Below are positions 6,788 to 21,465 of a DNA stretch of 64,000 nucleotides, one piece after another; positions within the stretch are counted from its first letter, which is position 1, and each line of letters opens with the position of its first letter. Below the pieces are notes generated by a model. It was given only the letters and a program-made list of their open reading frames with translations, made no database searches and had not been told where the DNA came from. Source of the stretch: Elusimicrobiota bacterium (GTDB taxonomy: Bacteria; Elusimicrobiota; Elusimicrobia; UBA1565; UBA9628); NCBI GenBank assembly GCA_036676805.1, contig JAKFCD010000110.1, positions 66,378-130,377 of the forward strand. The letters run 5' to 3'. The translations under genes were made by a program, and so were the position numbers.

Positions 6788-6846
6788 CTGCCCGGCTGTC
6801 CCGGAGATCGCCTCGCGCACCCCCTTTTATGGATAGGAGGTGCTAC

Positions 6847-7419
6847 ATGGCCAAGCCCAAGCTGGACATCCCCATCGGCACGACCGGGGCGCGACCCTGG
6901 AAAGGCATCGTCTGGCATCACTCGGCAAGCCCTGACGGCGCGACCCGGGACTGGGATGGGATCGCACGCTACCACACCTCCCACCGCGTCGACTTCGAGA
7001 TCGTCTCTCCGCAGGAGTTTGAGCGGCGGCTCGCGCTCCGACAAGGAGCGAGCTTTCAGCGGCCGTGGAAAGACGTGGGCTACCACGGCGGGACTGAGTT
7101 CGTCGGAGAGAGCCCCGCGTTCCATTGGGGCCGGCGGCTCTCCATGATCGGAGCCCATGCCGGGGTAAAGGACGCCTCCAACCGCTTCAACGAGGAGTAC
7201 CTGGGACTCTGCTGCATCGGCGACTTCGACAAGGCCCCTCCGTCGCCGCAAATGTGGGACTTCAACCTGATGCTAACCCGCGCACTCATGGAGGTCTTCC
7301 GCATCCCGGCCGGCCACGTGATCGGCCACCGCGAGGTGTTCGACCGCCTGGGCGTTCCACGCCAGAAAACCTGTCCCGGTCGGAACTGGGACATGGACTT
7401 TTTCAGGAACGAGCTCTGA
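6847..7419 (+). CDS. N-acetylmuramoyl-L-alanine amidase (amidase_2/PGRP family) endolysin
   Basis: AGGAGG lies 6 nt before ATG 6847. 'IVWHHSASP' and 'TCPGRNWD' motifs are characteristic of zinc amidase_2 (T7 lysozyme/PGRP fold). Lysis-cassette context. Confidence 0.7.
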   Translation: MAKPKLDIPIGTTGARPWKGIVWHHSASPDGATRDWDGIARYHTSHRVDFEIVSPQEFERRLALRQGASFQRPWKDVGYHGGTEFVGESPAFHWGRRLSMIGAHAGVKDASNRFNEEYLGLCCIGDFDKAPPSPQMWDFNLMLTRALMEVFRIPAGHVIGHREVFDRLGVPRQKTCPGRNWDMDFFRNEL

Positions 7420-7730
7420 TGGGCGAGCTCAAACGGCTGACCCTGACGCTCGCGCGAAAGACGCTCGGAAGCGATCTCGCGCAGAACCTGATCCGGGACC
7501 TCAAGTCTCTGAGGGCGCTGTGGAATTGGATTTACATGGCCCTCTACGTCTGGATCTGCGTCTGGACGGTCTTACACCACCCGGATGCCATCCCGACGGT
7601 GGTCACGGTGACGGGCGGGGTGGTGTCGGTCATCTTCAGCGGCTACGTCCTGAGCCGCACCTACGAGAAGGTCAAAAACGGCGGGAATGGCCTGCCGCAC
7701 AACGAGGAGGAGAATGGGAATAGCGATTAG
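7419..7730 (+). CDS. holin-like membrane protein
   Basis: Start overlaps the amidase stop (TGATG). 103-aa product has two hydrophobic helices ('ALWNWIYMALYVWICVWTVL', 'VTGGVVSVIFSGYVL') and a charged C-terminus. Confidence 0.45.
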   Translation: MGELKRLTLTLARKTLGSDLAQNLIRDLKSLRALWNWIYMALYVWICVWTVLHHPDAIPTVVTVTGGVVSVIFSGYVLSRTYEKVKNGGNGLPHNEEENGNSD

Positions 7731-8313
7731 GCTGTTCGGAGTCGCGACGAGCGTCGTGTTCTTCGCCGTCCGGCGACCCAAGGAAGCCGCGGTTGTCTTG
7801 CTGGCCGCGCTCCTCGCGATGACATTGTGGAGGCTCGAGCGCGAGAAGAGTCACGCGCGAGAACTCGCCGCCAAGCTCGAGGGCCTGCCGCCCAATACAA
7901 AGCAGGTGGTGACGGTCCACCGCAACCACGTCATCACCAAATGGCGCGATGGGCCGACCAAGATCGAGTACCGCGACCGCTACCTGCCGCCCGAAGGCCA
8001 CGTCGAAGTCGTGACCAAGATCGATGAACCGGAAAAACCACCCGAGATCGTCATCAAAGACCGCGGATTCACAAGCCGCCTCGGCGCTGGGCTTGTCTAC
8101 TCCGGCGAACCGCTGCCGATGCTCGATTTGAAATGGGCCTACTGGCGGCGATACAGCCTGCTGCTCGGGATGACGCCGGCATTCGGAGGTTTGGGCGTCT
8201 CTCGCCATATCGATGACTTCACACCATTCAGCAATCTGGAACTCGTGGGCCTCGGTGGATTGGACTGGCGTGGCGGCCCCCGCGCCGGCATCGGGCTTCG
8301 CCTGAGCTTCTAG
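7714..8313 (+). CDS. putative Rz-like spanin / lysis accessory protein
   Basis: GGAGGAG RBS before ATG 7714. N-terminal TM helix, then a coiled-coil 'WRLEREKSHARELAAKLEGL' region. Last gene of the lysis cassette. Confidence 0.35.
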   Translation: MGIAIRLFGVATSVVFFAVRRPKEAAVVLLAALLAMTLWRLEREKSHARELAAKLEGLPPNTKQVVTVHRNHVITKWRDGPTKIEYRDRYLPPEGHVEVVTKIDEPEKPPEIVIKDRGFTSRLGAGLVYSGEPLPMLDLKWAYWRRYSLLLGMTPAFGGLGVSRHIDDFTPFSNLELVGLGGLDWRGGPRAGIGLRLSF

Positions 8314-8314
8314 G

Positions 8315-8330
8315 CCTCGACTCGTCGAGG
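8315..8330 (+). terminator. hairpin (cctcgac-tc-gtcgagg) after the lysis cassette, followed by an AT-rich promoter-like spacer
   Basis: Perfect 7-bp stem with a 2-nt loop immediately after the 8313 stop. The downstream 80 nt is markedly AT-rich ('ttacttctatcgccaaatttgccataattttccaattctttcg') in a GC-rich genome. Confidence 0.3.
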
Positions 8331-8409
8331 ACGCGTTACTTCTATCGCCAAATTTGCCATAATTTTCCAATTCTTTCGTCACAGAACCGCTATGTAGGAG
8401 ATTTGTGCC

Positions 8410-10944
8410 ATGGGCCGAGGCCGCGAGCTAGAGAGCAAGAAGCCAATCGAGCAGTACGACCACGCGGGCAAGACTCGAAAGAACAACCCTCCCGTCGGCC
8501 TGGTCACGGCCGATACCGAGAAGGCCGACTCCGACAAGAAAACTTACGCATACGACCCGCACATCGACCCTCGCCTGGATTGGGCAGGGAAGAAGGAGCA
8601 CACGTCCTTCGAGGTGCCGACGGTCTCCCTTCACGTCCACGAGCGCATTGACCCAAAGACGATCATCGAAGCCGTGCGTCGCAAGAACGGCAACGGCCAG
8701 ATGCAGTTGCCGCTGTTCGAGTCCCCGAAAGAGAACCCCCCGCTCCGCGAGGCGCTAGACTTCTACAAGCACTCGCACAACTGGTCTAACCGCCTGATTG
8801 CCGGCGACTCGCTGCTCGTTATGAACTCCCTCATCGAGAAGGAGGGTATGGCCGGGCAACTTCAGATGATCTACATCGACCCGCCCTACGGCATCAAGTA
8901 CGGCTCGAACTTCCAGCCGTTCGTCAACAAACGGGATGTGAAGGATGGCAAGGACGACGATCTGACTCAGGAACCCGAGACCATCAGGGCCTTCCGGGAT
9001 ACCTGGGAACTCGGGGTCCACTCGTACCTAACCTACTTGAGGGATCGCCTCTTGCTGGCAAAGCGCTTGCTGGCCGAGAGTGGCTCTTGCTTCGTTCAAA
9101 TCTCCGACGAGAATGTTCAGCGCGTCCGCCTCCTAATGGACGAAGTCTTCGGCGCAGAGAATTTCTGTTCTCAAATCATCTTCCGAAAGACCACCGGGAA
9201 GGGAAGTGCAATGCTTGACAATACGTACGATGTCCTCCTGTGGTATGCCCGCGATAAAGCCCAAGCGCAGAAGCGGTTTCGGCGCATGTATTTTCTGCGC
9301 AAGCGCTCCGACGATGACAATTACCGGTTCGTCGAGGAACAGAATGGATCTAGACGGACCCTCAAAAAGCAGGAGTGGGAGCAGATCGATTCACTCGTCG
9401 ACCTCAAAATCTTCAGCGCGAATCCTCTGACGTCTCAGTCAGCGAGTTCTACAACCCTCTTTAATTATAAGTTCCAAGGAAAGGTCTTTTCCCCCGGCAA
9501 GGGCGGATGGAAGACGAACCTGGAGGGAATGAAGCGCCTCGAAGCCGAAAGGCGCCTCATGGGAATCGGGAACACTCTAAGATTCATCCGGTACTATGAC
9601 GACTTCCCGTATCAAAGCTTCAGCGATATTTGGGACGACACGCGACAGAGCGGGTTCGGAGAAGCAAAAATCTACGTCGTCCAGACGATGGCCCGGGTGG
9701 TTGCACGCTGCATTCAAATGACCACAGATCCGGGCGACCTGGTCTTCGATCCCACCTGCGGGTCTGGAACTACCGCTGCCGCTGCTGAACAATGGGGCCG
9801 GCGCTGGATTACTTGCGATACGTCCCGGGTCGCCATCAGCCTTGCGAAGCAACGGCTCATGACGACCTTGTACGACTACTATGAGTTGGCCCACCCTGAA
9901 GAAGGCGTCGGTAGCGGTTTCAAATACAAGAGGGTGCCGCATGTAACCCTCAAATCAATTGCGAATAGTGAGCCGCCGACTCCTGAGACTCTATATGATC
10001 AACCGCTTCCGAATGCCACTAGAGCTCGCATCACGGGCCCATTTACGGTAGAGGCAGTTCCATCGCCCGTCGTTAAGCCTCTCTCCGAGGTCCAACAAGA
10101 ACAGGCGATTAGCGATGGTTCCCTGTCTCGCGCCGGTGCCACCTCGCGGCAAGCTGACTGGCGGGCGGAGCTCCTACAGACCGGAATCCGAGGCAAGGGC
10201 AAGCAGTCCATTGATTTCTCGCGAATCGAACCCCTCCCAGGGACTCGCTGGCTACACGCAGACGGGGAGACAAAAGGTTCGAGCCCTGAGCGAGTCGTTG
10301 TGTCCTTCGGCCCAGAGCACGCACCTCTCGAGCAGAAGCAGGTCGAACTGGCATGGGAGGAGGCGCGAAAGTTGAGCCCCAAGCCGTCCATGATCGTCTT
10401 TGCCTCTTTCCACTTCGACCCCGAAGCAGCCAAGGACATCGACGAGCTCACGAAAGATAAGACCGGCATGACGTTCCTTAAGGTCCAAATGAACACGGAC
10501 CTCCTGACTGAGGATCTCAAGAAACAGCGCTCCAGCAACCAGTCATTCTGGCTCATGGGCCAGCCCGACGTCACCGTCCGAGAAATCAAGAAGGGCGAGG
10601 ACAAGGGGAAGCATCAAGTTGAGGTACACGGGTTCGACTACTACAACACAAAGACGGGCACCATCGAGTCTGGCGATACGTCCAAGATTGCCGTGTGGAT
10701 GCTGGACACTGACTACGACGGTCGGAGCCTCTACCCCCGTCAGGTATTCTTCCCGATTGCGGGAGAGAAGGATGGATGGGCTCGTCTAGCGAAGAATTTG
10801 AAGGCGGAGATCGATCGAGACCTCATCGAGGCCTACCGCGGGACAATATCGTTACCGTTCGACCTGGGCAAGCATAAGCGCGTTGCCGTCAAGATCGTTG
10901 ACGACCGCGGAATCGAGAGCCTCAAGGTGATCGAGGTCGCCTGA
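8410..10944 (+). CDS. mod: Type III restriction-modification system Mod subunit (beta-class N6-adenine DNA methyltransferase)
   Basis: Motif IV 'IYIDPPYGIKYG' near aa 150 precedes motif I 'VFDPTCGSGTTAAAA' near aa 450, which is the beta-class order. 844 aa. Directly coupled to the res gene. GTAGGAG RBS. Confidence 0.8.
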   Translation: MGRGRELESKKPIEQYDHAGKTRKNNPPVGLVTADTEKADSDKKTYAYDPHIDPRLDWAGKKEHTSFEVPTVSLHVHERIDPKTIIEAVRRKNGNGQMQLPLFESPKENPPLREALDFYKHSHNWSNRLIAGDSLLVMNSLIEKEGMAGQLQMIYIDPPYGIKYGSNFQPFVNKRDVKDGKDDDLTQEPETIRAFRDTWELGVHSYLTYLRDRLLLAKRLLAESGSCFVQISDENVQRVRLLMDEVFGAENFCSQIIFRKTTGKGSAMLDNTYDVLLWYARDKAQAQKRFRRMYFLRKRSDDDNYRFVEEQNGSRRTLKKQEWEQIDSLVDLKIFSANPLTSQSASSTTLFNYKFQGKVFSPGKGGWKTNLEGMKRLEAERRLMGIGNTLRFIRYYDDFPYQSFSDIWDDTRQSGFGEAKIYVVQTMARVVARCIQMTTDPGDLVFDPTCGSGTTAAAAEQWGRRWITCDTSRVAISLAKQRLMTTLYDYYELAHPEEGVGSGFKYKRVPHVTLKSIANSEPPTPETLYDQPLPNATRARITGPFTVEAVPSPVVKPLSEVQQEQAISDGSLSRAGATSRQADWRAELLQTGIRGKGKQSIDFSRIEPLPGTRWLHADGETKGSSPERVVVSFGPEHAPLEQKQVELAWEEARKLSPKPSMIVFASFHFDPEAAKDIDELTKDKTGMTFLKVQMNTDLLTEDLKKQRSSNQSFWLMGQPDVTVREIKKGEDKGKHQVEVHGFDYYNTKTGTIESGDTSKIAVWMLDTDYDGRSLYPRQVFFPIAGEKDGWARLAKNLKAEIDRDLIEAYRGTISLPFDLGKHKRVAVKIVDDRGIESLKVIEVA

Positions 10945-13757
10945 TGACCGGCAGCGGGACAATCGACCAACTCATCAAGAACTCCCCGTACAAGGAGCCG
11001 ATGTGTTATTGGTCCTACGATCGGGAGACGCGTTCGTTTAACCTCGTTGAGGGTAAGCGTCGGCCCGCAGGCTACGTGCGGGCATCAGAGAGTTCCCGCT
11101 CCTTCGACGACCCTGGGGAATTCATTGAACTGCCCCTCGTCAACAAGATCCGCGACCGTGTAAAGGCCTGGCGCGAACATCCCCACACGCCCTATGCAGG
11201 AACGACAGGGATCACCCGTCGACTCCTTGAGCACTGGCGCGACCCCTCTCAGCGGGACTCCAATCAGCGCCTGTTCTTCTGCCAACTCGAGGCCATTGAA
11301 ACCCTGATCTGGCTCGCCGAGGCCCCTCCCTCCGAGCGCCAGGGGATCGAGGTGCCCGGCGACGGCGGCCCTTTCACCCGCGTTTGTTCCAAGATGGCAA
11401 CCGGTTCGGGAAAGACGACGGTGATGGGGATGATTATCGCCTGGCAGGTGCTGAACAAGGCCACCTATCCCCAGGATAAGCGTTTCTCGAAGAACATCCT
11501 GATAGTCGCCCCAGGGTTAACGGTGAAGAGTCGTCTCCGAGTGCTGATTCCCGCCGGGGCCGATAACTACTACGAAGAGTTTAATCTAATTCCGCCCGGG
11601 CTTCACGATAAGCTGCGAACCGCCAAGGTGCTCATCCACAATTGGCATGCCCTGATGCCCCTTGACCCAAACGCCGGGCCGCGGGTCATGAAGAAGGGAG
11701 CAGAGAGCGACGAGGCCTTTACCCGGCGCATCCTGGCCGACATGGCCTCCGCCAGCGGCTTACTGGTGATCAACGATGAAGCTCACCATGCCTGGCGTGT
11801 GCCGCCCAAGTCCACGATCAAGGGTATCTCGAAGGACGAAATCGAGGAGGCCACCCAGTGGGTTGGCGGCCTCGACCGCATCCACAAGACGAGAGGAATC
11901 CTCCGTTGCTTCGACCTGACAGCAACCCCCTTCGCGCCCACTGGGAAACGGAGCGGCGAGGAGACTCTATTCGACTGGATCGTCAGCGACTTCGGACTCA
12001 ACGACGCCATCGAGGCCGGCCTCGTGAAGACTCCCCGCGTTGTAATCCGCGACGACGGCGTTCCCGACGCCAGGACCTACAAGTCCCGCCTCTACCACAT
12101 TTACATGGACCCGGAGGTCAAAGACGACCTCAACCGCAAAGCCGAGGCCCACGAGAAGCTGCCCGACCTGGTGATCAATGGGTACTACCTCCTGGGCAAG
12201 GACTGGCTGGAGACTGCCAAGGACTGGAGCAAGCGGGGATTTCCCACGCCGCCTGTCATGATCTCGGTCGCCAACCGAACGGAGACGGCGGCCCGCATCC
12301 AGTTTGCCATTACGCGCGGGAAGATCCGCATTGACGAGCTCAAGGCTCCGGACAAGACCCTCCACATCGACTCCAAGGTGCTGGACGAGGCCGAGGCGCT
12401 GGCGGAACCGGTGACCATCCGCGCAAACGAATCGGCGGACGATGAGACCGAGGACGACGAAGCTCCCATCAGGAAGCTTTCCAGAAAGGAGCAGGCGGAG
12501 TTGCTAAGGCGTAAGGTCGATACCGTCGGTAAGCCGGGACAGCCCGGCGAGCAGATCCAGAAGGTCATCTCGGTTGGGATGCTGTCCGAGGGCTGGGATG
12601 CGAAGACTGTGACGCATATCATGGGGCTTCGCGCCTTCACCAGCCAACTCCTGTGCGAGCAGGTGGTCGGCCGCGGCCTCCGGCGCACCTCCTACGACGT
12701 GAATCCCGATACCGGGCTTTTCGAGCCAGAGTACGTCAACATCTTCGGGGTCCCGTTCACCTTTCTGCCCCATGAGGGAGGCGATGGGCCGCCTCCGCCT
12801 CCGCCTCCGCCAAAAACTCGGATCGAGTCCCTGCCCGAGAATGTCGAGTTTCAGATTTCCTGGCCGAATATCGTGCGGATCGACCACGAGTTCCGGCCGC
12901 AGCTTGCGCTGGACTGGCCCAAGATCAAGCGCCTCACGATCAATGCCAACGACACGCGCACGCTGGCCGAACTCGCACCAGTGGTCGAGGGAAAGCCCGA
13001 CGCCACGAAGGTCACGGAGATAGACCTCGAGGATCTGGGCCGCAAGTTCCGCATGCAGAAGGTGATCTTCGAAGTCGCCGGCGACATTTTCGACCAGATG
13101 AAGCCCGGCTGGAAGGCAAACCGAGAGTACTTGCTGGCGCAGCTCATCAAACTTGTCGAGCAGTTCCTCACAAGCAATAAGCTGGACATCGATCCTCCGT
13201 TATTCAACCAGGATGATCTCAGACGGCGCATCCTCTTAACCTTGAATATGTCCAAGATCGTCCAGCACATCTGGGAGGCGATCCGGTTCTCCAACACGGA
13301 GGCGCTCGCTCCCGTCTTCGACACAGAGTGCCCCGTGCGGTCAACCGGGGACATGCGGCCGTGGTTCACCGGAAGGCCCTGCGAGCACACGAGGCGCTCC
13401 CATATCAGCCACTGCGTCTACGACAGCACCTGGGAGGCGAGCGAGGCCTTCAAGCTCGACCACGACAAGAGCGTCGAGGCGTGGGCCAAGAACGACCATC
13501 TCGGCTTCCAGGTCCTCTATATCTTCAACGGGGTCGTGCGGAAGTATTACCCCGACTTCATGATCCGCCTCAAGAGCGGCAAGATGCTGGTCCTCGAGGT
13601 GAAGGGGCAGGACTCCCAGGAGAATCGCACCAAGCGCGAGTTCCTGAAAGAGTGGGTGGAGGCCGTCAACGCCCATGGCGGCTTCGGGACATGGGCATGG
13701 GACGTCTCCCTCCAGCCGAAGGACTTGGCAGGGATACTTCTACGCCACAGCCGATGA
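10944..13757 (+). CDS. res: Type III restriction enzyme Res subunit (SF2 DEAH helicase plus C-terminal PD-ExK endonuclease)
   Basis: Walker A 'MATGSGKTTVMG', motif II 'VINDEAHHAW', and a C-terminal nuclease motif 'YYPDFMIRLKSGKMLVLEVKG'. Start overlaps the mod stop. Confidence 0.85.
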   Translation: MTGSGTIDQLIKNSPYKEPMCYWSYDRETRSFNLVEGKRRPAGYVRASESSRSFDDPGEFIELPLVNKIRDRVKAWREHPHTPYAGTTGITRRLLEHWRDPSQRDSNQRLFFCQLEAIETLIWLAEAPPSERQGIEVPGDGGPFTRVCSKMATGSGKTTVMGMIIAWQVLNKATYPQDKRFSKNILIVAPGLTVKSRLRVLIPAGADNYYEEFNLIPPGLHDKLRTAKVLIHNWHALMPLDPNAGPRVMKKGAESDEAFTRRILADMASASGLLVINDEAHHAWRVPPKSTIKGISKDEIEEATQWVGGLDRIHKTRGILRCFDLTATPFAPTGKRSGEETLFDWIVSDFGLNDAIEAGLVKTPRVVIRDDGVPDARTYKSRLYHIYMDPEVKDDLNRKAEAHEKLPDLVINGYYLLGKDWLETAKDWSKRGFPTPPVMISVANRTETAARIQFAITRGKIRIDELKAPDKTLHIDSKVLDEAEALAEPVTIRANESADDETEDDEAPIRKLSRKEQAELLRRKVDTVGKPGQPGEQIQKVISVGMLSEGWDAKTVTHIMGLRAFTSQLLCEQVVGRGLRRTSYDVNPDTGLFEPEYVNIFGVPFTFLPHEGGDGPPPPPPPPKTRIESLPENVEFQISWPNIVRIDHEFRPQLALDWPKIKRLTINANDTRTLAELAPVVEGKPDATKVTEIDLEDLGRKFRMQKVIFEVAGDIFDQMKPGWKANREYLLAQLIKLVEQFLTSNKLDIDPPLFNQDDLRRRILLTLNMSKIVQHIWEAIRFSNTEALAPVFDTECPVRSTGDMRPWFTGRPCEHTRRSHISHCVYDSTWEASEAFKLDHDKSVEAWAKNDHLGFQVLYIFNGVVRKYYPDFMIRLKSGKMLVLEVKGQDSQENRTKREFLKEWVEAVNAHGGFGTWAWDVSLQPKDLAGILLRHSR

Positions 13758-15865
13758 AGGTACAGACCCGAAAGGTTCTCCTGCCGAAGAGCGCGCGACC
13801 AAGTCCGGTGGCGTCGATACCTACATGGACCATGCTCGAGGCCGGCGATCTTCCGGTTCGCCAACTCGCGGCCTTTGCTCTGCGGGAAGGCCGGAGACCT
13901 CGGCCGATCTATACTGCCCACAAGTGGTTTGCGAGACGCCTGGGATGCGTCTTTCGAGCGATTCTCATTGGGGCAACCTCTAAGCCGAAGGACGATTTTT
14001 GGGCAGCCTACTACGGGGATGCCAACCTCAAGACACTCAAGGTCCTGGACCCGTTCGTCGGCGGAGGGACCTCTGTCGTCGAAGCTTCCCGCCTAGGTGC
14101 AACCACATTCGGAACCGATGTCGATCCCGTCGCATGCGCAGTGACGAGACTGGAACTTCACGCGGGATTGCTCCCCGACCTTAAGCCAGCTCTTGCGCGC
14201 CTTCAAGAGACAGTGGGAAAGAATTTGAGCCCGTACCACAAGACCCGTGACAGTTCTGGCCAAACCCATACCGTCCTCCATCACTTTTGGGTTCAGGTCG
14301 TGCGGTGCGCTGATTGCAGACACCAGTTCGAGGCACACCCAAATTTCCGCCTTGCCGAAGATGGCAAACATCAATGGGCATTCTGCTCGGCCTGCCACGA
14401 AATCCACAGACTTCCTGCAGCCCAGAACTCTTTCCGCTGCGCCAAGTGCGCCAATGAGACAGAGATCGATGCCGGACGAGTAGTTTATGGCACCGTCGAA
14501 TGTCCGAAGTGTCGGCTCCGGGAGCCATTGATCGAAATCGCGCGTCGAACGACCCGGCCTCCCCATTGGCGGATGTTCGCAAGCGAGGTTATTCCCGAGC
14601 AGAAGGGAACCCGCGCAGTGCCCATGCGCCTGAGAAAGTTCCTGCGGACGACGGGCTTCGATGACTCCCTGTACGAGGATGCCCATAAGGCACTGAGGAG
14701 ATGGAAACGGCGGCACCCCGGTCTCTTGCCCACCAAGGCGATCCGCGCGGGGCGGACCGACTCTCGACTTATCGACTACGGTTATCGAAAATGGACCGAC
14801 CTCTTCAACGCCCGGCAACTTCTTCACCTGTCCATGCTGGCGGAGGCGATCAGGCAGTTTGAGGGTCCCACCCGAATGGCGTTGTCGATGGCCTTTAGCG
14901 ACCATCTGACAACGAATTGTCTTCAGGCCTCGTATGCCTCGGGCTGGCGACGGCTGACTCCACTGTTTGGCGTCCGAGCTTTTCGCCATGTGCCTCGCCC
15001 AGTCGAAATCAACCCTTGGTCCGATGGCACCGGCCGTGGCACTTTCCCAAATACGATTCGCGGCCTGGCTCGCGCGGCCGAGTTTGCCCGAAACCCGAAA
15101 GAGCCGTACCGTGGTGGATTCCGACAGGTATCAGTCATCCCAGCGGATGACCCGCCTCTAATCACCAATACGGCGGCACAAGGACTAAATTTCCTGGAGG
15201 ACGAGAGCATAGATATCGTCCTAACGGACCCCCCGTACTTTGACAACATTGCGTACTCAGAACTGGCAGAGTTCTTTGTTCCCTGGCTCGAGAATCTCGA
15301 CGTGATCAAGCGCCGCGGAACGCGAGAGACAATCATGCTGCATGGGCTCGGCGGCAAGCGCGGCAAGGATCGCACCCTCGACAAGTACACTACCGGGCTC
15401 GGGGGATGCTTTCGAGAGGTCGCGCGCGTCTTGAAGCCAACAGGCCTCGTCGCATTCAGTTTTAGACATGCCGTTCCTGAGGCATGGCTTGCCCTAGCTA
15501 ATGCCATTGCATCCAATCCACTTAGAGTGGCGCAGGTACTGCCCGCGCCAGGAGAGGCCGGGGTAGGACTGCATGTCCACGAGGGCTCCGGCGTTTGGGA
15601 TGCCGTGTTCGTTCTTCGAAAAAACTCCCGGCCGCGATCCTCAAACGAACTGCGAGTCAGCACCCCCCAACAGCGTCAGGTGGATAGAATGGTCACCGCC
15701 TGGAAGAAAAAGCTGTATGGTGCGCCCCTTCCCTTCACCAAAATTGATCAACTCGCCCTAAGAAGAGCGTGTCTAATTTCGGCAGCCCTCATCTCGCGGG
15801 ACGCAAAGACCTCGGCTCAGCCAGGGACTCGTCTGCGAGATCTTTTGTCCGAACCCAAGGATTAG
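13754..15865 (+). CDS. second N6-adenine DNA methyltransferase (DUF1156-like, with CxxC zinc-ribbon insertion)
   Basis: ATGA overlap with res stop. Motif I 'VLDPFVGGGTSVVEASRLGATTFGTDVDP' is N-terminal. A Cys cluster follows (CADCRH...CSACH...CAKCAN...CPKCR). Motif IV 'IVLTDPPYFDNIAY' is C-terminal. The ORF-track start at 13328 is rejected because it lies inside res. Confidence 0.7.
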   Translation: MKVQTRKVLLPKSARPSPVASIPTWTMLEAGDLPVRQLAAFALREGRRPRPIYTAHKWFARRLGCVFRAILIGATSKPKDDFWAAYYGDANLKTLKVLDPFVGGGTSVVEASRLGATTFGTDVDPVACAVTRLELHAGLLPDLKPALARLQETVGKNLSPYHKTRDSSGQTHTVLHHFWVQVVRCADCRHQFEAHPNFRLAEDGKHQWAFCSACHEIHRLPAAQNSFRCAKCANETEIDAGRVVYGTVECPKCRLREPLIEIARRTTRPPHWRMFASEVIPEQKGTRAVPMRLRKFLRTTGFDDSLYEDAHKALRRWKRRHPGLLPTKAIRAGRTDSRLIDYGYRKWTDLFNARQLLHLSMLAEAIRQFEGPTRMALSMAFSDHLTTNCLQASYASGWRRLTPLFGVRAFRHVPRPVEINPWSDGTGRGTFPNTIRGLARAAEFARNPKEPYRGGFRQVSVIPADDPPLITNTAAQGLNFLEDESIDIVLTDPPYFDNIAYSELAEFFVPWLENLDVIKRRGTRETIMLHGLGGKRGKDRTLDKYTTGLGGCFREVARVLKPTGLVAFSFRHAVPEAWLALANAIASNPLRVAQVLPAPGEAGVGLHVHEGSGVWDAVFVLRKNSRPRSSNELRVSTPQQRQVDRMVTAWKKKLYGAPLPFTKIDQLALRRACLISAALISRDAKTSAQPGTRLRDLLSEPKD

Positions 15866-15880
15866 CCGGGGAGAATCAAG

Positions 15881-18800
15881 GTGCCATACCTTACCAAACA
15901 GGTCATCTCCAACTATCTCAGAAGCGAATGCCGGCGCAGGCTTCGCCTCGATCTCTCCCCTGACAATCAACGCTATCGAGCTGAACGTACTGCCCAAGCC
16001 ATGCCACCCGAGGCAGTCGGTCGGCCTGGCCTTCGGGCACTCGCCGCTGCAGGGACAGAATGGGAGGAGTCGAAGCTAAACGACCTCGTTCAAACCCTTG
16101 GCACGGCCGCTCTCATCGGAAATTCAGTTCGAACGACCACGGGCTCACTCCGCTTTTCCGAAACCCCACTATCCGGCGTCATTGGGCGCGCAGCCCCAGG
16201 CACATTCATCGTCCAGGGGGAGTATGACCTGGGTCCGGGCTTCGAGGCCGCCCTGGGAATCGCCTCGCTTCGCACAGCGCATGCGCTCAACTACGGGCAA
16301 CTTCGACCCGATCTCATCCAGGTACTCGCTCCCGGCACGCAATCCCACGCAGTACGGCCCGATGGGACGATCATCGATGTGCCACAGGGCGATCAACGTC
16401 TCCCACTGCGCGTAATTGAGATCAAGTTAACCGCCGAGCCTTCCGTCCCGTATTTCGTCGAAGTCACATACTACTCCATGGCCCTCGCCGCATGGCTGGC
16501 AGACCATCAGCTCGACAATCGCTTCTTTGTCGTTCCGGAAGCGGCGGTATGGCCGGGCTCGCACGAGGCCTCCGCCGTCGTGCGTTTTCAATCCGAATGC
16601 CAGGCACAGGGGATTACGCCCACCTCGGCCCAGTTGCTGCAAGCCCTCGCAGGTGACCTCGAGATCGGCGAATTTAGCGTCTTCGCTCCTCGGCTGAGGC
16701 GATTCTTCCAAGAGGAATTGGCGGCCGTACTCGGGCAACCGTGGCGGCAGCTCGAATGGCATGTTGATAACCGTTGCATCGGATGCGAGTACTTGGGATA
16801 TCCATGGCCTGGGACGACCCCGAATCCCGATCACTGTTGGCCCATGGCCAATACGCAGGATCACCTGAGCCGGGTGGCTTTCGTCTCTCGGGGAGCTCGG
16901 AACGCCCTTGAGGAAAATCTGATTGGGAGCGTCGCCGCGCTCGCGGGCACTCAGCCGGACAACGTCGCATTCGATTCACATCATGTGCTCCGCGCGACAC
17001 GCACCGTCGTCGCCGGAAGGGCCCAGTCATTGACCACGGGACAGGCGGCGGTGCCCCCTCAGGCCGGCACCTCTGCCGTGATGCCTCGGTGGACGGATCT
17101 CCGCATTTACCTTACCGCCGACTTCGACATCGGTAGTGGTATAACCATGGCGTTCGGCTTCAAAGCTGTCTGGGGCGTCGCTCAGAATCGCATCCAACAG
17201 GGTCAGCAGCACTTCCACGTCTGGCAAGCGCAGGCATTCCCCATAGACCAGAGGGACCCCGCAGTTGAGCAGCGGGAGCTTCTTCGGTTGCTAGATGCCG
17301 TGGACCAGGCGCTTCGATTTGCGACGGCGACAATTCCGACCGCAACCGTTCAAGTCTACGTCTGGGATTCCCTGACCTATGATCATCTCGTCCGAGTCAT
17401 CGGCCGCCATCTCACATCGATCATTCAAAACCGCCTGCTATCTCGTCTCGCCTGGCTGTTCCCGCCGGATACTCTTGTCGCCAACCCTGACATTTCGGAC
17501 CGGTTTTGCCCCATCACGGTCTTACGCGACGTCATGCGCGCGGTCATCGCTGCGCCGGTTCCCCATTACTACAGCTTGCTCAGCGTGGCCCGCGAATACC
17601 ATTCTGCGAGAACCCAGCCTCCATTTGATCGGTTTGATGTTCCGACGTTCTTTGAGGACCCCCTGTCTGACCAGGTCCCCTCAGAACGCGCCCACGAAAT
17701 ATGGTCGCGGGCTACAGGCGCACGGCCGTGGAACGTCCAACTTCGCAGTCTTGAACGAACTGTACAAGTGAAGCTGAATGCCATCGAGAGCATCGCCGAT
17801 AGGCTCGGGGCAGACCTTCAGGGGCAGCTCAATCAAACTGCTCCTCGGATCACCGATCTGCGAGCCCCGAGCCTGCCGCGGAGGATGGCAGATGACGCGA
17901 GGCTATGGTCAATCTTTGCGAGGCTGAATGTGGCATTGGAAGAACTTGAAATAGAGAAGACCCATGCAATGCCGCCGCATGAGCGGGAAGCCCGTTTCAA
18001 AAGTGCTTGGCTGACGAATCGTCTCGCGGGCCCGGCTGCTCAGCAGGTACTTACGCGCTTCGGGCTACAGCCGGCCTCTAACCGACTCGTTTTCACCATT
18101 CGGCCGGGCTCTCGCGAGGTCAAGGCGAAGGAAGGAGACTTTACCTTTGCGCTGGCTCCTGCAAGCGCTCCAGGGTTCCTCGGGCGACGAATTAGAACTG
18201 TAGCAGGGGCAGTTCAACTTCCACTCCCGGGAACCAATGACGAATGGAAGCCCATGGAGTATGTCACCGGCGTCTCCGTCCAGGCTATAGATCGGGATGC
18301 AGGCCACATCGTTCTTGATCTAGACACAAGATGGGCTCCCGTCTTCTTTGCACTCGAGCAAGCCGGTGTTGTGAATTTCTCAACAGATGTGATGCTTGAT
18401 CCGGTCCACAGGGATTTCTTCACGAAACGTCTGGACAAGACTCTCAACGCCATCGGAAATCCTCCCATCGCAATCGCGCATCCTGGCGTCGGACAAGCAA
18501 TCGGGCGAGCGAGGCGAGCGACCGCAGGAGCTGTCAGTCCAGTGGCAGATGTCTACTGGAATTCCGCAGCGCTATATGGATCTCAAGTTCAACGCAACCT
18601 GCCGCCGATTCAGACGCTGCTTTCCGCAAGTCCTGACTTCGACCTCAATCAGAGCCAATGGCAGGCGTGGCAGGAATCCCTGACTCATCGCCTGCGCCTG
18701 ATCTGGGGGCCGCCCGGCACGGGGAAGAGCCGCACGCTTCGAACAATCGTGATGGGCGCCTTTCATGAAGCCTCTCAGCAAGGGCAGCAGATGCGTGTCT

Positions 18801-20146
18801 TGGTTACCGGCCCGACCTACGAGGCTATTGACAACGTACTCCTCGGCGTCGCCACAGCTCTTATGGGAACGGGGCCTCTCGCGCTGCAACAAACACTCAT
18901 TGCGAGACTTCGTTCCACGACGCGACCGTCGGACTCGGCAGTGCCTCAGCAGATCGATGTTCCGACTGATCCATCGTCTCAGGCATTCCAGCAGTTGCGC
19001 GGCCGACTACAGCAGGCGCAGGGGCTGACACTCGTAGGGGCCCCGGTCCAACAGGCATACAAATTGATGGATTCAGCGGGACGGCCAGTCCAGGAGTTTT
19101 TCGACCTCGTCATCGTCGATGAAGCCTCTCAGATGGATGTCGCCACTTCGACTTTAGCGCTCGCAGGACTTGCGACAGGCGGCTCGGTTGTTGTCGCTGG
19201 AGATCCTCAACAGTTGCCGCCGATCCACCAGGCGGAGCCGCCGACAGGACTCGAGCACATGGTCGGGCCTCTCTTCAAATATCTGCGAGACCGCCACAAC
19301 CTAACTCCCTTGGTTCTGGATGTTAACTACAGATCGTGCTCAACCATCGTTGAATTGGCCCACGCGGCGAATTACCCAAGAACGCTTCAATCCTATTCAC
19401 CCAATCTTCGGCTCGAAGTTACTACGCCCATTCCAGCCGCTGCAGCCCCTCCTCAGGGATGGCCGCCTGGTTTGCTCTGGACTCCAGAATGGGCAGCGCT
19501 CCTCGATCCTGCGCAGCCAGCAACCTGCTTCATCTATCGGGAAGGACGCAGCAGCCAGTGGAATCAGTTCGAAGCCGATGCCGTCGCATCGCTCGTCTGG
19601 TTGCTTGCGAACCGGGTGGGCGACCACCTGGTGGACGAGCGAATCGCCCCAACTGGGAACATCCAGCCTACGATTGGGCTTCCATACTCCATGCAGGATT
19701 TCTGGAATAGGGGGATTGGGATTGTAACTCCGCACAGAGCGCAGCAGGCTCTCATTGTGAATCGTCTCCAATCGCTGTTCCCCGGTCCAGACGGTCGGGA
19801 TATCCGCGAAGCAGTGGACACGGTCGAGCGATTCCAGGGCCAACAACGGGACGTAATGTTGGCGACCTTCGCATTGGGAGACCCTGACGCCATTGGCGAT
19901 GAGGACGAATTTCTTCTCAGCCTCAATCGCTTCAACGTAATGGTGTCGCGGGCTCGCGCGAAGCTTATCGTATTCGCTTCGCAAGAGGTGGTCGACCATA
20001 TGTCTTCCGACATGAACGTCTTGCGTCAGTCGGCGCTACTAAAAACCTTCGTGGAGCCCTTCTGCAATCAGGGGAGGCCGATGATCCTCGGCCACATGCG
20101 CGCGGCCGGACCTCATCAGGTTCCGGGACGCTTCCGTTGGCGCTAA
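15881..20146 (+). CDS. DNA2-like nuclease-helicase: N-terminal RecB/PD-(D/E)xK-type nuclease plus C-terminal SF1B (Upf1/DNA2-like) helicase, 1421 aa
   Basis: GTG start 9 nt after GGGGAGA. Helicase motifs 'LIWGPPGTGKSRT', 'LVIVDEASQMDV', 'LDVNYRS', 'TVERFQGQQRDV', 'NVMVSRARAKLIVF'. N-terminal 'RPDLIQV ... VIEIKLTAE ... YYSMALAAW' resembles PD/ExK/QxxxY nuclease motifs. Confidence 0.7.
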   Translation: MPYLTKQVISNYLRSECRRRLRLDLSPDNQRYRAERTAQAMPPEAVGRPGLRALAAAGTEWEESKLNDLVQTLGTAALIGNSVRTTTGSLRFSETPLSGVIGRAAPGTFIVQGEYDLGPGFEAALGIASLRTAHALNYGQLRPDLIQVLAPGTQSHAVRPDGTIIDVPQGDQRLPLRVIEIKLTAEPSVPYFVEVTYYSMALAAWLADHQLDNRFFVVPEAAVWPGSHEASAVVRFQSECQAQGITPTSAQLLQALAGDLEIGEFSVFAPRLRRFFQEELAAVLGQPWRQLEWHVDNRCIGCEYLGYPWPGTTPNPDHCWPMANTQDHLSRVAFVSRGARNALEENLIGSVAALAGTQPDNVAFDSHHVLRATRTVVAGRAQSLTTGQAAVPPQAGTSAVMPRWTDLRIYLTADFDIGSGITMAFGFKAVWGVAQNRIQQGQQHFHVWQAQAFPIDQRDPAVEQRELLRLLDAVDQALRFATATIPTATVQVYVWDSLTYDHLVRVIGRHLTSIIQNRLLSRLAWLFPPDTLVANPDISDRFCPITVLRDVMRAVIAAPVPHYYSLLSVAREYHSARTQPPFDRFDVPTFFEDPLSDQVPSERAHEIWSRATGARPWNVQLRSLERTVQVKLNAIESIADRLGADLQGQLNQTAPRITDLRAPSLPRRMADDARLWSIFARLNVALEELEIEKTHAMPPHEREARFKSAWLTNRLAGPAAQQVLTRFGLQPASNRLVFTIRPGSREVKAKEGDFTFALAPASAPGFLGRRIRTVAGAVQLPLPGTNDEWKPMEYVTGVSVQAIDRDAGHIVLDLDTRWAPVFFALEQAGVVNFSTDVMLDPVHRDFFTKRLDKTLNAIGNPPIAIAHPGVGQAIGRARRATAGAVSPVADVYWNSAALYGSQVQRNLPPIQTLLSASPDFDLNQSQWQAWQESLTHRLRLIWGPPGTGKSRTLRTIVMGAFHEASQQGQQMRVLVTGPTYEAIDNVLLGVATALMGTGPLALQQTLIARLRSTTRPSDSAVPQQIDVPTDPSSQAFQQLRGRLQQAQGLTLVGAPVQQAYKLMDSAGRPVQEFFDLVIVDEASQMDVATSTLALAGLATGGSVVVAGDPQQLPPIHQAEPPTGLEHMVGPLFKYLRDRHNLTPLVLDVNYRSCSTIVELAHAANYPRTLQSYSPNLRLEVTTPIPAAAAPPQGWPPGLLWTPEWAALLDPAQPATCFIYREGRSSQWNQFEADAVASLVWLLANRVGDHLVDERIAPTGNIQPTIGLPYSMQDFWNRGIGIVTPHRAQQALIVNRLQSLFPGPDGRDIREAVDTVERFQGQQRDVMLATFALGDPDAIGDEDEFLLSLNRFNVMVSRARAKLIVFASQEVVDHMSSDMNVLRQSALLKTFVEPFCNQGRPMILGHMRAAGPHQVPGRFRWR

Positions 20147-21030
20147 AACCGCGGATGCGCCCTCTGGCAAGCCTTCTTCAGATGCTCGGCTGTGACGTGG
20201 GTGTAGCGGGCCGTCGTCAGCACGGACGCGTGACCCAATAGCTCGGCAAGGGTCCGCAGGTCGACGCCTCCCTGGAGCAGATGCGTCGCGCAGCTATGGC
20301 GGATCTGATGGGGCGTCACGCGGCCAAGAAGCCCAGCCCGGCGCGCTGCCGCCCCAAGACGCCTCCCGAAGCCGCCACGAGTGATCGGACCCCGGCCTCG
20401 CCCATTGAGAAACACGACGTCGCCCGTCGCCGGGAAGCGCGCGGCGCGGGCATCAAGGTAGCGCCCCAGGGCGGCCCCAGCGCGGGGCCCGAAGGGGACA
20501 AGGCGCTCCTTTGAGCCCTTCCCCGTCACGCGCGCCCAACCCTCCCGGAGGTCTACCTGCCCCAGGCGCAGGCCGGTCAGCTCCGAGACCCGCATCCCCG
20601 TGGCGTACATGAGCTCGAGCATGGCGTGGTCGCGCAAGGCCGCGAACTTGCCCCCCACAGGCGGGCGAAGCAGGCGATCCATGCCCTCCTCGGCCAACGG
20701 TTTCGGGATTCGCTGCTTGAACCGCGGCAGCCTCATCCCGCTGGTCGGGTCGGCCGGGACGAGGCCGACCGCGACCAGATGGCGATGGAACTGTCGGACG
20801 GCCATCGCAGCGATGAATAGCGACGCGGACTTGAGCCCGGCGTCCCGGCGGCGCTCGTGGTAGGCGAGGACGTCGCCGCGGGTGGCAGTGGCCACCGCCC
20901 GGCCATTCTCCCGCAGGTGGGCCACGTAGGCCCCGAGCTGATACCCGTAGGACAGGCAGGTGTTGGGGGCAAGCCCCCGCTCCACCCGCAGATGCTGCAC
21001 GAAAGCGTCGACCAGCGGATCAGTCGCCAT
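20143..21030 (-). CDS. site-specific tyrosine recombinase, XerC/XerD family (295 aa, no phage-type arm-binding domain)
   Basis: N-terminus 'LVDAFVQHLRVERGLAPNTCLSYGYQL'. C-terminal catalytic region 'RHSCATHLLQGGVDLRTLAELLGHASVLTTARYTHV'. The size and N-terminus match Xer-type recombinases rather than phage integrases. Confidence 0.8.
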   Translation of the reverse strand: MATDPLVDAFVQHLRVERGLAPNTCLSYGYQLGAYVAHLRENGRAVATATRGDVLAYHERRRDAGLKSASLFIAAMAVRQFHRHLVAVGLVPADPTSGMRLPRFKQRIPKPLAEEGMDRLLRPPVGGKFAALRDHAMLELMYATGMRVSELTGLRLGQVDLREGWARVTGKGSKERLVPFGPRAGAALGRYLDARAARFPATGDVVFLNGRGRGPITRGGFGRRLGAAARRAGLLGRVTPHQIRHSCATHLLQGGVDLRTLAELLGHASVLTTARYTHVTAEHLKKACQRAHPRF

Positions 21031-21039
21031 CGACGCGCC

Positions 21040-21465
21040 CTACGCCTTCTGGACGACGCGCACCCGCTTCTTCTCGTCGCGGACCACCTGCCAGCCCTTC
21101 CTGGCGTAGGAGACCATCCGGGCCCGCACGTTGGCCTGGAGGTCCTTACCCTTGGCGGCGTCGCCGGCCTTCTTGGCGAGCTCGGCGGCGATCTCCTGGA
21201 CCGTATGCTGCCCCGTCGTCAGCATGGGGTCGATGAACGCCGCCAGCGACCCATCCCTGCCCGCGCCCTGGGCCTTGCCCGCCTTCTTCACGCCGTTGGC
21301 GGCGACCGTCTTCGCGACCTTCCCGTTCTTCTTCGCCATAGCTCTCTCCTCCCATTCGATTCGTCGGACCTCTTCCGCGCAGCCGTGGCAGGCGAAGCCC
21401 GCGAAGGACCGCCTCACCACCAGCCGTCCGGCCATCACGTTCGTGCCGCACTTCTCGCAGATCAT
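21040..21465 (-). CDS. small basic Lys/Ala-rich putative DNA-binding protein, possibly with an N-terminal zinc ribbon (alternative start 21366)
   Basis: A strong internal RBS (GGGAGGAGAG) precedes 'MAKKNGKVAKTVAANGVKKAGKAQGAG'. Upstream in frame lies 'CEKCG...CHGC'. The C-terminal 'GKDLQANVRARMVSYARKGWQVV' module is shared with the 22869-23291 product. Confidence 0.45.
   Translation of the reverse strand: MICEKCGTNVMAGRLVVRRSFAGFACHGCAEEVRRIEWEERAMAKKNGKVAKTVAANGVKKAGKAQGAGRDGSLAAFIDPMLTTGQHTVQEIAAELAKKAGDAAKGKDLQANVRARMVSYARKGWQVVRDEKKRVRVVQKA

Follow-up and report, generated by a model that had tools for sequence, protein, structure and literature searches.

A predicted zinc-finger adenine methyltransferase gene stacked behind a Type III-like mod/res pair, and its conserved nuclease-helicase neighbour: a candidate two-gene restriction-modification-like module

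Introduction

In a contig of an Elusimicrobiota bacterium, the start codon of a predicted DNA methyltransferase gene overlaps the stop codon of a restriction subunit gene (res). Does this methylase serve that restriction subunit, or does it belong with something else? An earlier note on the 64,000-nt stretch that we analysed (the window) had taken the overlap to tie the expression of the methylase to res. Our analysis points to the gene that follows. We propose that 13754-15865 encodes the modification subunit and 15881-20146 the restriction subunit of a compact two-gene, ATP-dependent restriction-modification (R-M)-like module, and we give this reading a probability of about two thirds. The proposal was built on sequence, predicted structure and gene neighbourhood: motifs, homology, fold, the conserved pairing of the two genes and their defence-island and mobile-element context.

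Results

The methylase gene and its motifs

The methylase gene was read as follows:

13754-15865, + strand: methyltransferase gene, 703 aa, with a split Rossmann core and an insertion of ~385 aa
13754-13757, + strand: ATGA, shared by the start codon of the methylase and the stop codon of res, as read from the letters
13832-14023, + strand: DUF1156-like N-terminal helical domain, aa 27-90, with the invariant REGRRPRPIYTAHKWFARRLG, placed by invariant columns and by alignment to a DUF1156 protein
14048-14074, + strand: motif I (SAM-binding loop) DPFVGGGTS, aa 99-107, followed by the motif II acidic residue D122
14306-14512, + strand: two predicted four-Cys zinc fingers, aa 185-253, in a beta-rich insertion with four CxxC pairs
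14930-15028, + strand: ultra-conserved loop, aa 393-425, SYASGWRRLTPLFGVRAFRHVPRPVEINPW, top-residue frequency 0.88
15224-15238, + strand: catalytic motif IV TDPPY, aa 491-495, amino-methyltransferase (N6-adenine) type by sequence

The methylase ATG (13754-13756) overlaps the TGA of res (13755-13757), and translation of 13754-15865 on the + strand ends at the TAG at 15863-15865. The first 26 residues are weakly conserved among homologues, some of which begin at the position equivalent to M27, and a GTG at V19 is an alternative start. Since a conserved 'IP..SLLEAG' begins near residue 22, the true start should be at 13754 or close by.

The layout that the earlier note had described (motif I, motif IV, the CxxC insertion and the ATGA) was borne out by the sequence and its translation, and the motifs and cysteines also by their invariance in 42 homologues. 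Its figures needed sharpening: the spacing between motifs I and IV, put at ~400 aa, is 383 residues, and the 'at least four' CxxC pairs are exactly four (C185/188, C211/214, C229/232 and C250/253). All eight cysteines, D99/G103-G105, D122 and D492-P-P-Y495 are invariant in the 42 homologues, which are only 48-58% identical overall, so this layout, as judged from the alignment, is not a chance arrangement.

In a profile comparison, motif I aligned with that of 2zie and CcrM, two beta-class methylases of solved structure. Together with motif I FxGxG, the protein has the acidic residue after strand 2, the (D/N/S)PPY motif and the Rossmann fold of SAM-dependent amino-methyltransferases. These features support a methylase whose SAM-binding site is intact and whose type is adenine (DPPY), in keeping with the earlier description of a second adenine methylase. 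DPPY and the genomic context favour DNA N6-adenine as the likely substrate. That DNA is the substrate does not follow from the fold, since the core finds its best structural matches among tRNA m2G methyltransferases.

The residues between the zinc-finger cysteines are variable (mean top-residue frequency 0.59), and weak zinc-ribbon Pfam matches were found in 17 of 18 family members. Target recognition probably lies in the zinc-finger insertion. No part of the protein is better conserved than the loop at aa 393-425, yet the pLDDT of this loop is below 50 at residues 393-411; it may be an interface with DNA or with a partner.

Relation to DUF1156 and HmaB

The only Pfam match above threshold was N6_N4_Mtase (36 bits). 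PF06634 (DUF1156) scored 10.6 bits (E 0.64, aa 33-74) against a cutoff of 24 and was not called. Across the family it gave any match in only six of 18 members (best E 0.059), and precomputed PF06634 matches were present in none of the 120 homologues listed. The NCBIfam model NF042963 (HmaB / anti-phage-associated DUF1156 equivalog) reached 91.7 bits over aa 484-648 only, against a cutoff of 1000, and the PADLOC HmaB models gave 55-62 bits as local matches only. By curated thresholds the methylase is outside both DUF1156 and HmaB.

When the 42-sequence profile was compared with an NCBI-annotated DUF1156 protein, hhalign returned a probability of 100 (E 1.4e-72, 594 columns), and the alignment spanned the N-terminal HKWFARR motif, motif I, all four CxxC pairs and motif IV. 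By tblastn the coverage was 96% (E 6e-74), and identity to annotated DUF1156 proteins was 29-31%. By these alignments the methylase is a full-length but distant homologue of the DUF1156/COG1743 zinc-finger methylases. The DUF1156-type layout of the earlier note therefore stands as homology along the whole protein and falls short as Pfam membership.

With HmaB and the BR-MTases (DUF1156/COG1743) the methylase shares full-length homology, the HKWW/FARR domain, motif I, DPPY and a target-recognition insertion after core strand 2 with four-Cys zinc finger(s). The same insertion is described in the literature on DUF1156-type methylases, where one subset has two zinc fingers. Those proteins are 880-970 aa long, whereas ours has 703 aa and is ~200 aa shorter. 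The HmaB and BR systems also have a DUF499 ATPase and an SNF2/DUF3883 helicase-nuclease. Here neither a DUF499 nor an SNF2 protein was found in the window operon or its flanks, and the partner is SF1B Dna2-like. We considered and rejected identity with Hma or another DUF499-centred, BREX-related system, whose tripartite core consists of a DUF499 ATPase, a methylase and an SF2 helicase(-nuclease), because there is no DUF499 ATPase.

The upstream mod/res system

The genes that precede the methylase form a system of their own:

8410-13757, + strand: separate Type III-like R-M system identified with PADLOC and NCBIfam, with mod at 8410-10944 and a BPTD_3080-family res at 10944-13757

This system matched PADLOC MTase_III with 536 bits and NCBIfam NF046055 with 1114.7 bits (cutoff 800). 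The four genes mod, res, methylase and nuclease-helicase share a strand and are probably in one transcript; their two overlaps measure 1 and 4 nt, and 15 nt separate the methylase from the nuclease-helicase. A consensus scan of 7300-21200 called no sigma-70-like promoter, and between res and the methylase it called no terminator-like site; these results carry no evidential weight either way. The weak terminator-like sites that it placed within genes, for example at 15589 in the methylase, occur at the background rate.

The codon composition divides the four genes differently. GC3 is 0.63 for both the methylase and the nuclease-helicase, 0.72 for mod and 0.80 for res; the recombinase gene has 0.83. 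Elsewhere, on Rhizobium etli and Planktothrix plasmids, a BPTD_3080 res stands alone with its own upstream methylase.

The conserved partner

The gene downstream of the methylase encodes a large protein of several domains:

15868-15873, + strand: Shine-Dalgarno-like GGGGAG, 7 nt 5' of the nuclease-helicase GTG start
15881-20146, + strand: conserved partner, nuclease-helicase, 1421 aa
15881-16870, + strand: Cas4/Dna2/AddB-like PD-(D/E)xK 'iron-staple' nuclease domain, aa 1-330, by fold assignment
17078-17716, + strand: DEDD 3'-5' exonuclease-like (RNase H-like) fold, ~aa 400-612, in which D414, D416 and D496 are conserved
17729-18580, + strand: long helices and a beta-barrel before the motor, ~aa 617-900, resembling Upf1-like stalk/1B elements
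18608-20143, + strand: SF1B Dna2/Upf1-like helicase, aa 910-1421, by Pfam AAA_11/AAA_12 and PDB profile

The key residues of the nuclease domain are C17, D144, E180-x-K182, E194xxxY198, C299, C302 and C319. In the DEDD-like domain D414, D416 and D496 occupy the expected Exo I/Exo II positions, and no clear Exo III residue was found. The helicase has the Walker A motif GPPGTGKS (943-950) and the Walker B motif DEASQ (1080-1084). Its profile matched DNA2 best in the PDB (E 1.1e-20), followed by IGHMBP2, SEN1 and Upf1. Among 29 homologues there is no variation at the nuclease, Fe-S, Walker A or Walker B residues, and the protein is predicted to have nuclease and helicase activity. We identified no domain in it that would read methyl marks or sequence.

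We then took a census of 80 related genome loci carrying a methylase homologue, from Planctomycetota, Acidobacteriota, Chloroflexota, Actinomycetota, Pseudomonadota, Myxococcota, Nitrospirota, Bacillota and other phyla. A full-length nuclease-helicase homologue was found beside the methylase in 72 loci by tblastn; BLASTP added a Bacillota locus, L084 (E 2e-75), as the 73rd. Five of the others are truncated at a contig end. Among the 72 tblastn loci, the nuclease-helicase is downstream on the same strand in 59, upstream in 10 and convergent in 3. With L084 included, 60 of the 73 loci have both genes on one strand with the methylase leading, and methylase-first is the usual R-M gene order. The expression order that had seemed atypical in the earlier note disappears once the methylase is set beside its real partner.

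Neither res nor mod of the BPTD_3080 type was present in any of the 80 loci; the methylase shows no conserved co-occurrence with res that would make it a second Mod of a Type III system, and the res family goes with its own mod only. Because of this absence, and because the GC3 of the methylase equals that of the downstream gene, its coupling to res is incidental: two systems are tightly stacked. The functional tie to res suggested by the ATGA was thus not upheld, whereas the proposal to delete the methylase with and without the nuclease-helicase did name the right partner.

The pair is sporadic and rare: at least 434 of ~185,000 species genomes gave a hit, and 562 clusters at 50% identity were counted among 1.84 billion proteins. 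On plasmids of Rhizobium and Bradyrhizobium, distant homologues of the nuclease-helicase are paired with an unrelated 370-aa SPPY methylase. From locus to locus, methylase and nuclease identities correlate poorly (Spearman 0.16), a sign that the two lineages have been shuffled; co-evolution as a sign of a complex was dropped on this result. Swappable methylases and shuffled lineages fit R-M logic.

One observation on the methylase itself speaks against the R-M reading. An identity of 50-58% across phyla is unusually high for an R-M specificity subunit, and hard to square with recognition sequences that diversify.

Prophage and defence-island context

Both modules lie between an endolysin gene and a tyrosine recombinase gene and appear to be prophage cargo. 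A search for a tRNA attachment site found none. The composition of the methylase and nuclease-helicase genes is atypical for the host. Across the census, Type I hsdR/hsdM-like genes lie within 10 kb in at least 15 of the 80 loci, and other loci adjoin integrases, transposases or HEPN genes. The neighbours of the pair at mobile elements and defence islands include Type I and III R-M, dGTPase, DUF262 and HEPN genes. This setting and the pairing in 73 of 80 loci support membership of an R-M-like defence module, as the earlier note had suggested from the layout. No close relative of the methylase was found among 50,697 phage records; a distant one occurs in Sulfolobus virus STSV2. The window operon and its flanks contain no DUF499/BrxC-type ATPase, PglZ or other BREX-like component.

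Discussion

Comparison with known systems

By analogy of architecture, the closest characterised counterpart of the pair is Bad (WP_053413574), a DNA2-like helicase-nuclease of Geobacillus stearothermophilus with an Fe-S nuclease and an SF1B helicase (Wilkinson et al. 2020, PMC7430649). Bad moves along DNA and unwinds it processively in the 5'-3' direction, cleaves ssDNA and without exception has an m6A methylase adjacent, and its authors proposed a new class of restriction enzyme that unwinds and degrades (PMC7430649). Our nuclease-helicase is likewise built in three parts: a RecB-family nuclease of the four-Cys Fe-S ('iron-staple') type at the N-terminus, then an unannotated central domain, then an SF1B helicase at the C-terminus, with a methylase gene adjacent. 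This likeness is one of architecture. The nuclease aspartate is at a near-equal position (D150 in Bad, D144 here), and both proteins neighbour a DNA adenine methylase, which is a predicted one here. Bad is shorter (1245 versus 1421 aa), with 665 residues between the nuclease aspartate and the Walker A lysine compared with 805 here. Its neighbouring methylase is by description related to Type III Mod, whereas ours is of the zinc-ribbon DUF1156 type. With the Bacillota homologue of L084 as the query, a protein search gave 12 proteins; one was from Clostridium botulinum and none was from Geobacillus.

Type I, ISP and III R-M systems likewise combine a self-marking methylase with an NTP-dependent motor-nuclease, and they are found side by side with the pair in defence islands. 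Those systems do not unwind DNA, their motors being SF2 translocases or sliding switches. Here an SF1B helicase shares its chain with a Cas4/Dna2-type nuclease and a DEDD-like domain, and there is no S subunit. The UvrD-Cas4-like fusions that accompany Type III Mod/Res also join an SF1 helicase to a Cas4-family nuclease and are encoded next to methylase genes in a defence setting (Hudaiberdiev et al. 2017, PMC5704561). Those, however, are SF1A with a C-terminal Cas4-like domain and a Type III link, while our protein is SF1B, has its nuclease at the N-terminus and lacks a conserved tie to Type III R-M.

Alternative explanations

The methylase and nuclease-helicase might instead work in a BREX- or Hma-like mode, as one obligate complex in which the methylase is a sensor and defence may block replication and not shred DNA. 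The methylase does belong to the same superfamily as the HmaB/BR and Type-3 BREX methylases (PMC12839542), and its ultra-conserved, low-confidence loop could be a protein interface. We still regard this as unlikely, given that the BREX-like components are missing from the operon and flanks, that the nuclease active site and Fe-S ligands of the partner are invariant, and that the two lineages recombine freely. A role outside defence is harder to maintain: methylation-linked DNA repair, recombination or end-processing, with a Dna2/AddAB-like enzyme directed or limited by marks, would suit the Dna2/AddB architecture of the partner. It is poorly matched by the rarity and patchiness of the pair, its host-atypical composition, its mobile-element and defence-island locations and its swappable methylases, and we hold it to be decidedly improbable.

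Two further readings separate the methylase from the nuclease-helicase. As an orphan or prophage-protective enzyme, it would act independently of the downstream gene, and its methylation of phage or host DNA would serve epigenetic regulation or the evasion of host restriction. Methylases are common in phages, the gene occupies a cargo position between the endolysin and recombinase genes, and the Sulfolobus virus relative can be counted in favour. Against this, the nuclease-helicase adjoins in 73 of 80 loci across many phyla and in three gene orders, and close relatives are lacking among the phage records searched, so that there is very little to recommend an independent role. The least credible alternative makes the methylase a second modification subunit of the BPTD_3080 Type III-like system, providing a second specificity or a safeguard and translationally coupled to res. 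The ATGA and the tight co-strand spacing of the four genes would agree with it, and the consensus scan of promoters and terminators adds nothing. The census largely refutes it with 0 of 80 loci, BPTD_3080 res manages with its own methylase alone on the plasmids mentioned above, and the GC3 of the methylase is that of the downstream gene and not of res.

Proposed mechanism and meaning

In the two-gene R-M-like module that we prefer, the methylase, its Rossmann core split after strand 2 by the ~385-aa insertion, would most likely read its target through the zinc fingers. As predicted from DPPY, it would methylate N6-adenine in host DNA and so protect self DNA. The nuclease-helicase would load on DNA that lacks the mark and, as an SF1B motor moving 5'-3', would then unwind and degrade it at the expense of ATP. 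The module sits directly behind an unrelated Type III-like mod/res system, apparently as prophage cargo.

More tentatively, and with somewhat less than even confidence, we suggest that the pair represents a distinct, widespread but rare class of ATP-dependent R-M, in which a DUF1156-like mark is combined with a single-chain, RecBCD/AddAB-like 'restriction shredder'. Such a chain would hold a Cas4-type Fe-S nuclease, a DEDD-type exonuclease and a Dna2-like SF1B helicase. On this reading the methylase loop at aa 393-425 might be a handle by which the motor is licensed or blocked. A restriction enzyme that processively unwinds and degrades would differ mechanistically from all classical R-M types, and this logic, if true, would be unlike the SF2 translocate-and-cut of Types I, ISP and III.

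In the literature searched we found no description or functional test of the methylase/nuclease-helicase pair, and no later test of the restriction role proposed for Bad in 2020. PADLOC 2.0 contains no model of the pair, and its matches to the two proteins were local ones only. If this is a working defence, it would be a compact two-gene R-M-like module that current defence finders (PADLOC 2.0) do not flag. For annotation, the locus teaches that a start/stop overlap between stacked defence genes does not amount to functional partnership, and that conserved neighbourhood identifies partners. If the reading is true, such a module would be present in those 434 or more species genomes, in most bacterial phyla, and would give bacterial DNA2-like helicase-nucleases a biological role of the kind proposed for Bad.

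Pairing of the methylase with the downstream nuclease-helicase

The methylase gene lies between a Type III-like mod/res pair and the gene of a large nuclease-helicase, in the following surroundings:

117-1286, tape-measure-like fragment
1283-4060, tail protein
4062-6533, 823-aa protein without assigned function
6829-7419, Amidase_2 endolysin
8410-13757, plus strand, mod and res
13754-15865, plus strand, methylase
15881-20146, plus strand, nuclease-helicase (Pfam AAA_11/AAA_12)
20143-21030, minus strand, tyrosine recombinase gene, overlapping the nuclease-helicase stop codon

Phage-type genes precede the defence genes, and the recombinase gene follows directly downstream on the opposite strand. 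Between 8 and 20 kb of the window the G+C content drops to 0.57-0.61, compared with about 0.64-0.73 outside, and the window holds no tRNA genes. The four defence genes are probably cargo at the prophage end and transcribed together. In the mod/res stretch (8410-13757), res belongs clearly to the NCBIfam 'BPTD_3080 family restriction endonuclease' (1114.7 bits), and the 844-aa Type III-like mod is encoded upstream of res, the two reading frames sharing base 10944. Our literature searches found no mention of the BPTD_3080 family by name.

The methylase ATG (13754-13756) and the res TGA (13755-13757) overlap as ATGA, just as the earlier note had read them. It had also concluded that this coupling ties the methylase to res, in an atypical order of expression. 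From 434 genome hits we took 80 related loci with 10-kb flanks and searched these with the four window proteins. A BPTD_3080 res or mod homologue adjoined the methylase in none of the 80, which argues that the methylase and nuclease-helicase do not belong to the Type III-like system. A full-length homologue of the 1421-aa nuclease-helicase was directly adjacent to the methylase in 72/80 loci (59 downstream and 10 upstream on the same strand, 3 convergent), with gaps typically of 24-255 nt, measured between alignment ends. L084, from Bacillota, is the 73rd paired locus (BLASTP 23% identity, E 2e-75, full length). In five of the remaining census loci the sequence ends less than 500 nt from the methylase. 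Other effectors were seen in just three loci (L081-L083), whose methylases are 33-38% identical; they are a ~470-aa protein without assigned identity, an SNF2 helicase and a NOV_C/DUF3883 protein, and they follow the methylase relative in this order in L081 (10007-16519) and L083 (7088-13708). The set resembles that of the Hma / DUF499-centred BREX-related systems, but the ORFs examined there include no DUF499 ATPase. Gene calls and Pfam labels brought out the methylase and nuclease-helicase pair in six more loci, of which five are independent, L004 being a repeat of L003.

Within the window, GC3 is 0.63 for both the methylase and the nuclease-helicase, 0.72 for mod, 0.80 for res and 0.83 for the recombinase gene. 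The spacing between the methylase and the nuclease-helicase is 15 nt, with GGGGAG placed 7 nt 5' of the GTG start. On other replicons, the BPTD_3080 res forms a self-contained pair with its own upstream methylase. Since res and mod are absent beside the methylase in the 80 loci, GC3 is shared with the downstream gene and BPTD_3080 pairs stand alone, the ATGA overlap is best read as the packing of two stacked systems. Judged from these sequence comparisons, the true nuclease of the methylase is its downstream partner and the gene order is the ordinary one with the methylase first, so neither the proposed link to res nor the atypical order was upheld.

A distant DUF1156-type methylase

Translation of 13754-15865 gives 703 aa and a TAG stop. 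The earlier note had put motif I (DPFVGGGTS, aa 99-107) and motif IV (TDPPY, aa 491-495) about 400 aa apart with at least four CxxC pairs; we found a spacing of 383 residues and, between the motifs, exactly four pairs (C185/188, C211/214, C229/232 and C250/253). Two alignments, of 18 and of 42 homologues with 48-58% identity to the window protein, show no variation at the eight cysteines, the glycines of motif I, D122 (which follows strand 2) or D492-P-P-Y495. By these alignments, the motifs and cysteine pairs are genuine and under selection. Residues 1-26 are weakly conserved and the conserved block begins near residue 22, which places the start at or very near 13754.

In the conservation profile, no internal region varies more than the double zinc-finger insertion. 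Conservation is highest at aa 393-425 (window 14930-15028), above the catalytic motifs, and residues 393-411 are predicted with very low confidence (pLDDT <50). This pattern suggests a segment that would be ordered only on DNA or a partner protein.

The only Pfam call on the methylase was N6_N4_Mtase (36 bits). PF06634 (DUF1156) scored 10.6 bits at the expected place (aa 33-74), below its cutoff of 24, the NCBIfam anti-phage DUF1156 equivalog reached 91.7 bits where 1000 are required, and matches to the PADLOC HmaB/DUF1156_MTase models were local only. In tblastn, the methylase matched proteins annotated by NCBI as 'DUF1156 domain-containing' over 96% coverage (29% identity, E 6e-74). hhalign of its family profile to one annotated DUF1156 protein gave a probability of 100 (E 1.4e-72, 594 columns), with the N-terminal HKWFARR, motif I, all four CxxC pairs and TDPPY aligned, and the profile comparison indicates homology end to end. 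In the published DUF1156 BR-MTases, the TRD is inserted after core strand 2 and bears a single zinc finger, a subset having two (PMC12839542), and the window methylase follows the same plan. The DUF1156-type layout claimed earlier thus stands at the superfamily level, while the curated thresholds place the protein outside DUF1156 and HmaB. The family is large and uniform, with more than 1,600 proteins of ~690 aa at E 1e-5 or better and a relative encoded in 434 of ~185,000 species genomes.

Architecture of the nuclease-helicase

Pfam detected the C-terminal SF1 helicase (AAA_11/AAA_12) alone and had no match in the first 900 residues. The top PDB matches of the family profile were the DNA2 helicase domain (E 1.1e-20), IGHMBP2, SEN1 and Upf1. 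Walker A (GPPGTGKS) spans 943-950 and Walker B (DEASQ) 1080-1084, and neither varies among the homologues. A HMMER scan of the full library with residues 1-910 gave 562 clusters at 50% identity, and the best 150 of these were nearly all proteins of ~1400-1500 aa or fragments, which points to a fixed architecture and a rare family. In one subgroup the protein is encoded by two overlapping genes that divide it at the domain border, one for 884 aa (nuclease and middle domains) and one for ~545 aa (SF1B helicase):

L063, 12094-16357
L065, 12094-16357
L079, 12148-14802 and 14783-16414

Because the same split is found in three independent genomes, it is a natural split or a programmed frameshift and not a sequencing error. 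Proteins with the N-terminal part only also exist (P0128, P0212, P0222).

Exchange of partners

Rhizobium and Bradyrhizobium plasmids encode distant full-length nuclease-helicase homologues (25-28% identity), each partnered by a methylase of 370 aa that is unrelated to the window methylase, has motif I at aa 42 and SPPY at aa 238, and is convergent with a 4-nt overlap:

L088, 5974-11324
L089, 5971-11330

This shows that the methylase partner is exchangeable. The Bradyrhizobium pair sits amid dGTPase and DUF262 defence genes. Identities of the methylase and the nuclease-helicase are discordant across loci; the closest methylases pair with 47-48% identical helicases and the closest helicases with 51% identical methylases. 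Other effectors beside methylase relatives are DUF3883/DUF499 (Hma-like), DUF262 with HEPN, and DISARM-like genes. A methylase and a potentially toxic nuclease that are mixed and matched in this way are the signature of R-M-type systems. Type I hsdR/hsdM-like genes lie within 10 kb in at least 15/80 loci, and integrases, primases, transposases or HEPN genes flank other loci.

The tiny, mobilisable 8.2-kb MOBQ plasmid of Tabrizicola piscis (L086, 2367-6936) also encodes a member of this methylase superfamily (29% identity). The genes that follow are for a DUF262 protein and a HEPN-like nuclease, a further set of effectors found with such methylases. On the Methylorubrum extorquens AM1 megaplasmid (L090, 6001-10348), a nuclease-helicase homologue (32-38% identity) is apparently interrupted, since its alignment falls into pieces at 6846/6857. 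A methylase relative was not found within 6 kb, and this may be a decaying copy.

Proposed mechanism and relation to known systems

The methylase would read a DNA sequence through its double zinc-finger insertion and then put N6-adenine methyl marks on host and prophage DNA. The nuclease-helicase would engage DNA lacking the mark, its 5'-3' SF1B motor unwinding it while strand degradation falls to the Cas4-type nuclease, possibly helped by the DEDD-like domain. Lack of the mark could be sensed by the nuclease-helicase when complexed with the methylase, the aa 393-425 loop being a possible contact, or by the nuclease-helicase itself; intrinsic sensing is favoured because the methylase and nuclease lineages shuffle.

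The biochemical plausibility of this scheme is drawn by analogy from Bad of Geobacillus stearothermophilus, an Fe-S nuclease/SF1B helicase that moves along DNA and unwinds it processively in the 5'-3' direction, acts as an ssDNA endonuclease, and always adjoins an m6A methylase (GCCAT) (PMC7430649). According to its published description, Bad has the same three-part plan as the nuclease-helicase. Hma/BR systems have a DUF499 ATPase and an SF2 helicase; the window pair lacks both and is therefore not Hma/BR. PADLOC 2.0 (2023) gave local matches alone for the two proteins, and literature searches found no published name or test for the pair. The idea of such a pair already has a published precursor in Bad, and the methylase superfamily is likewise already known.
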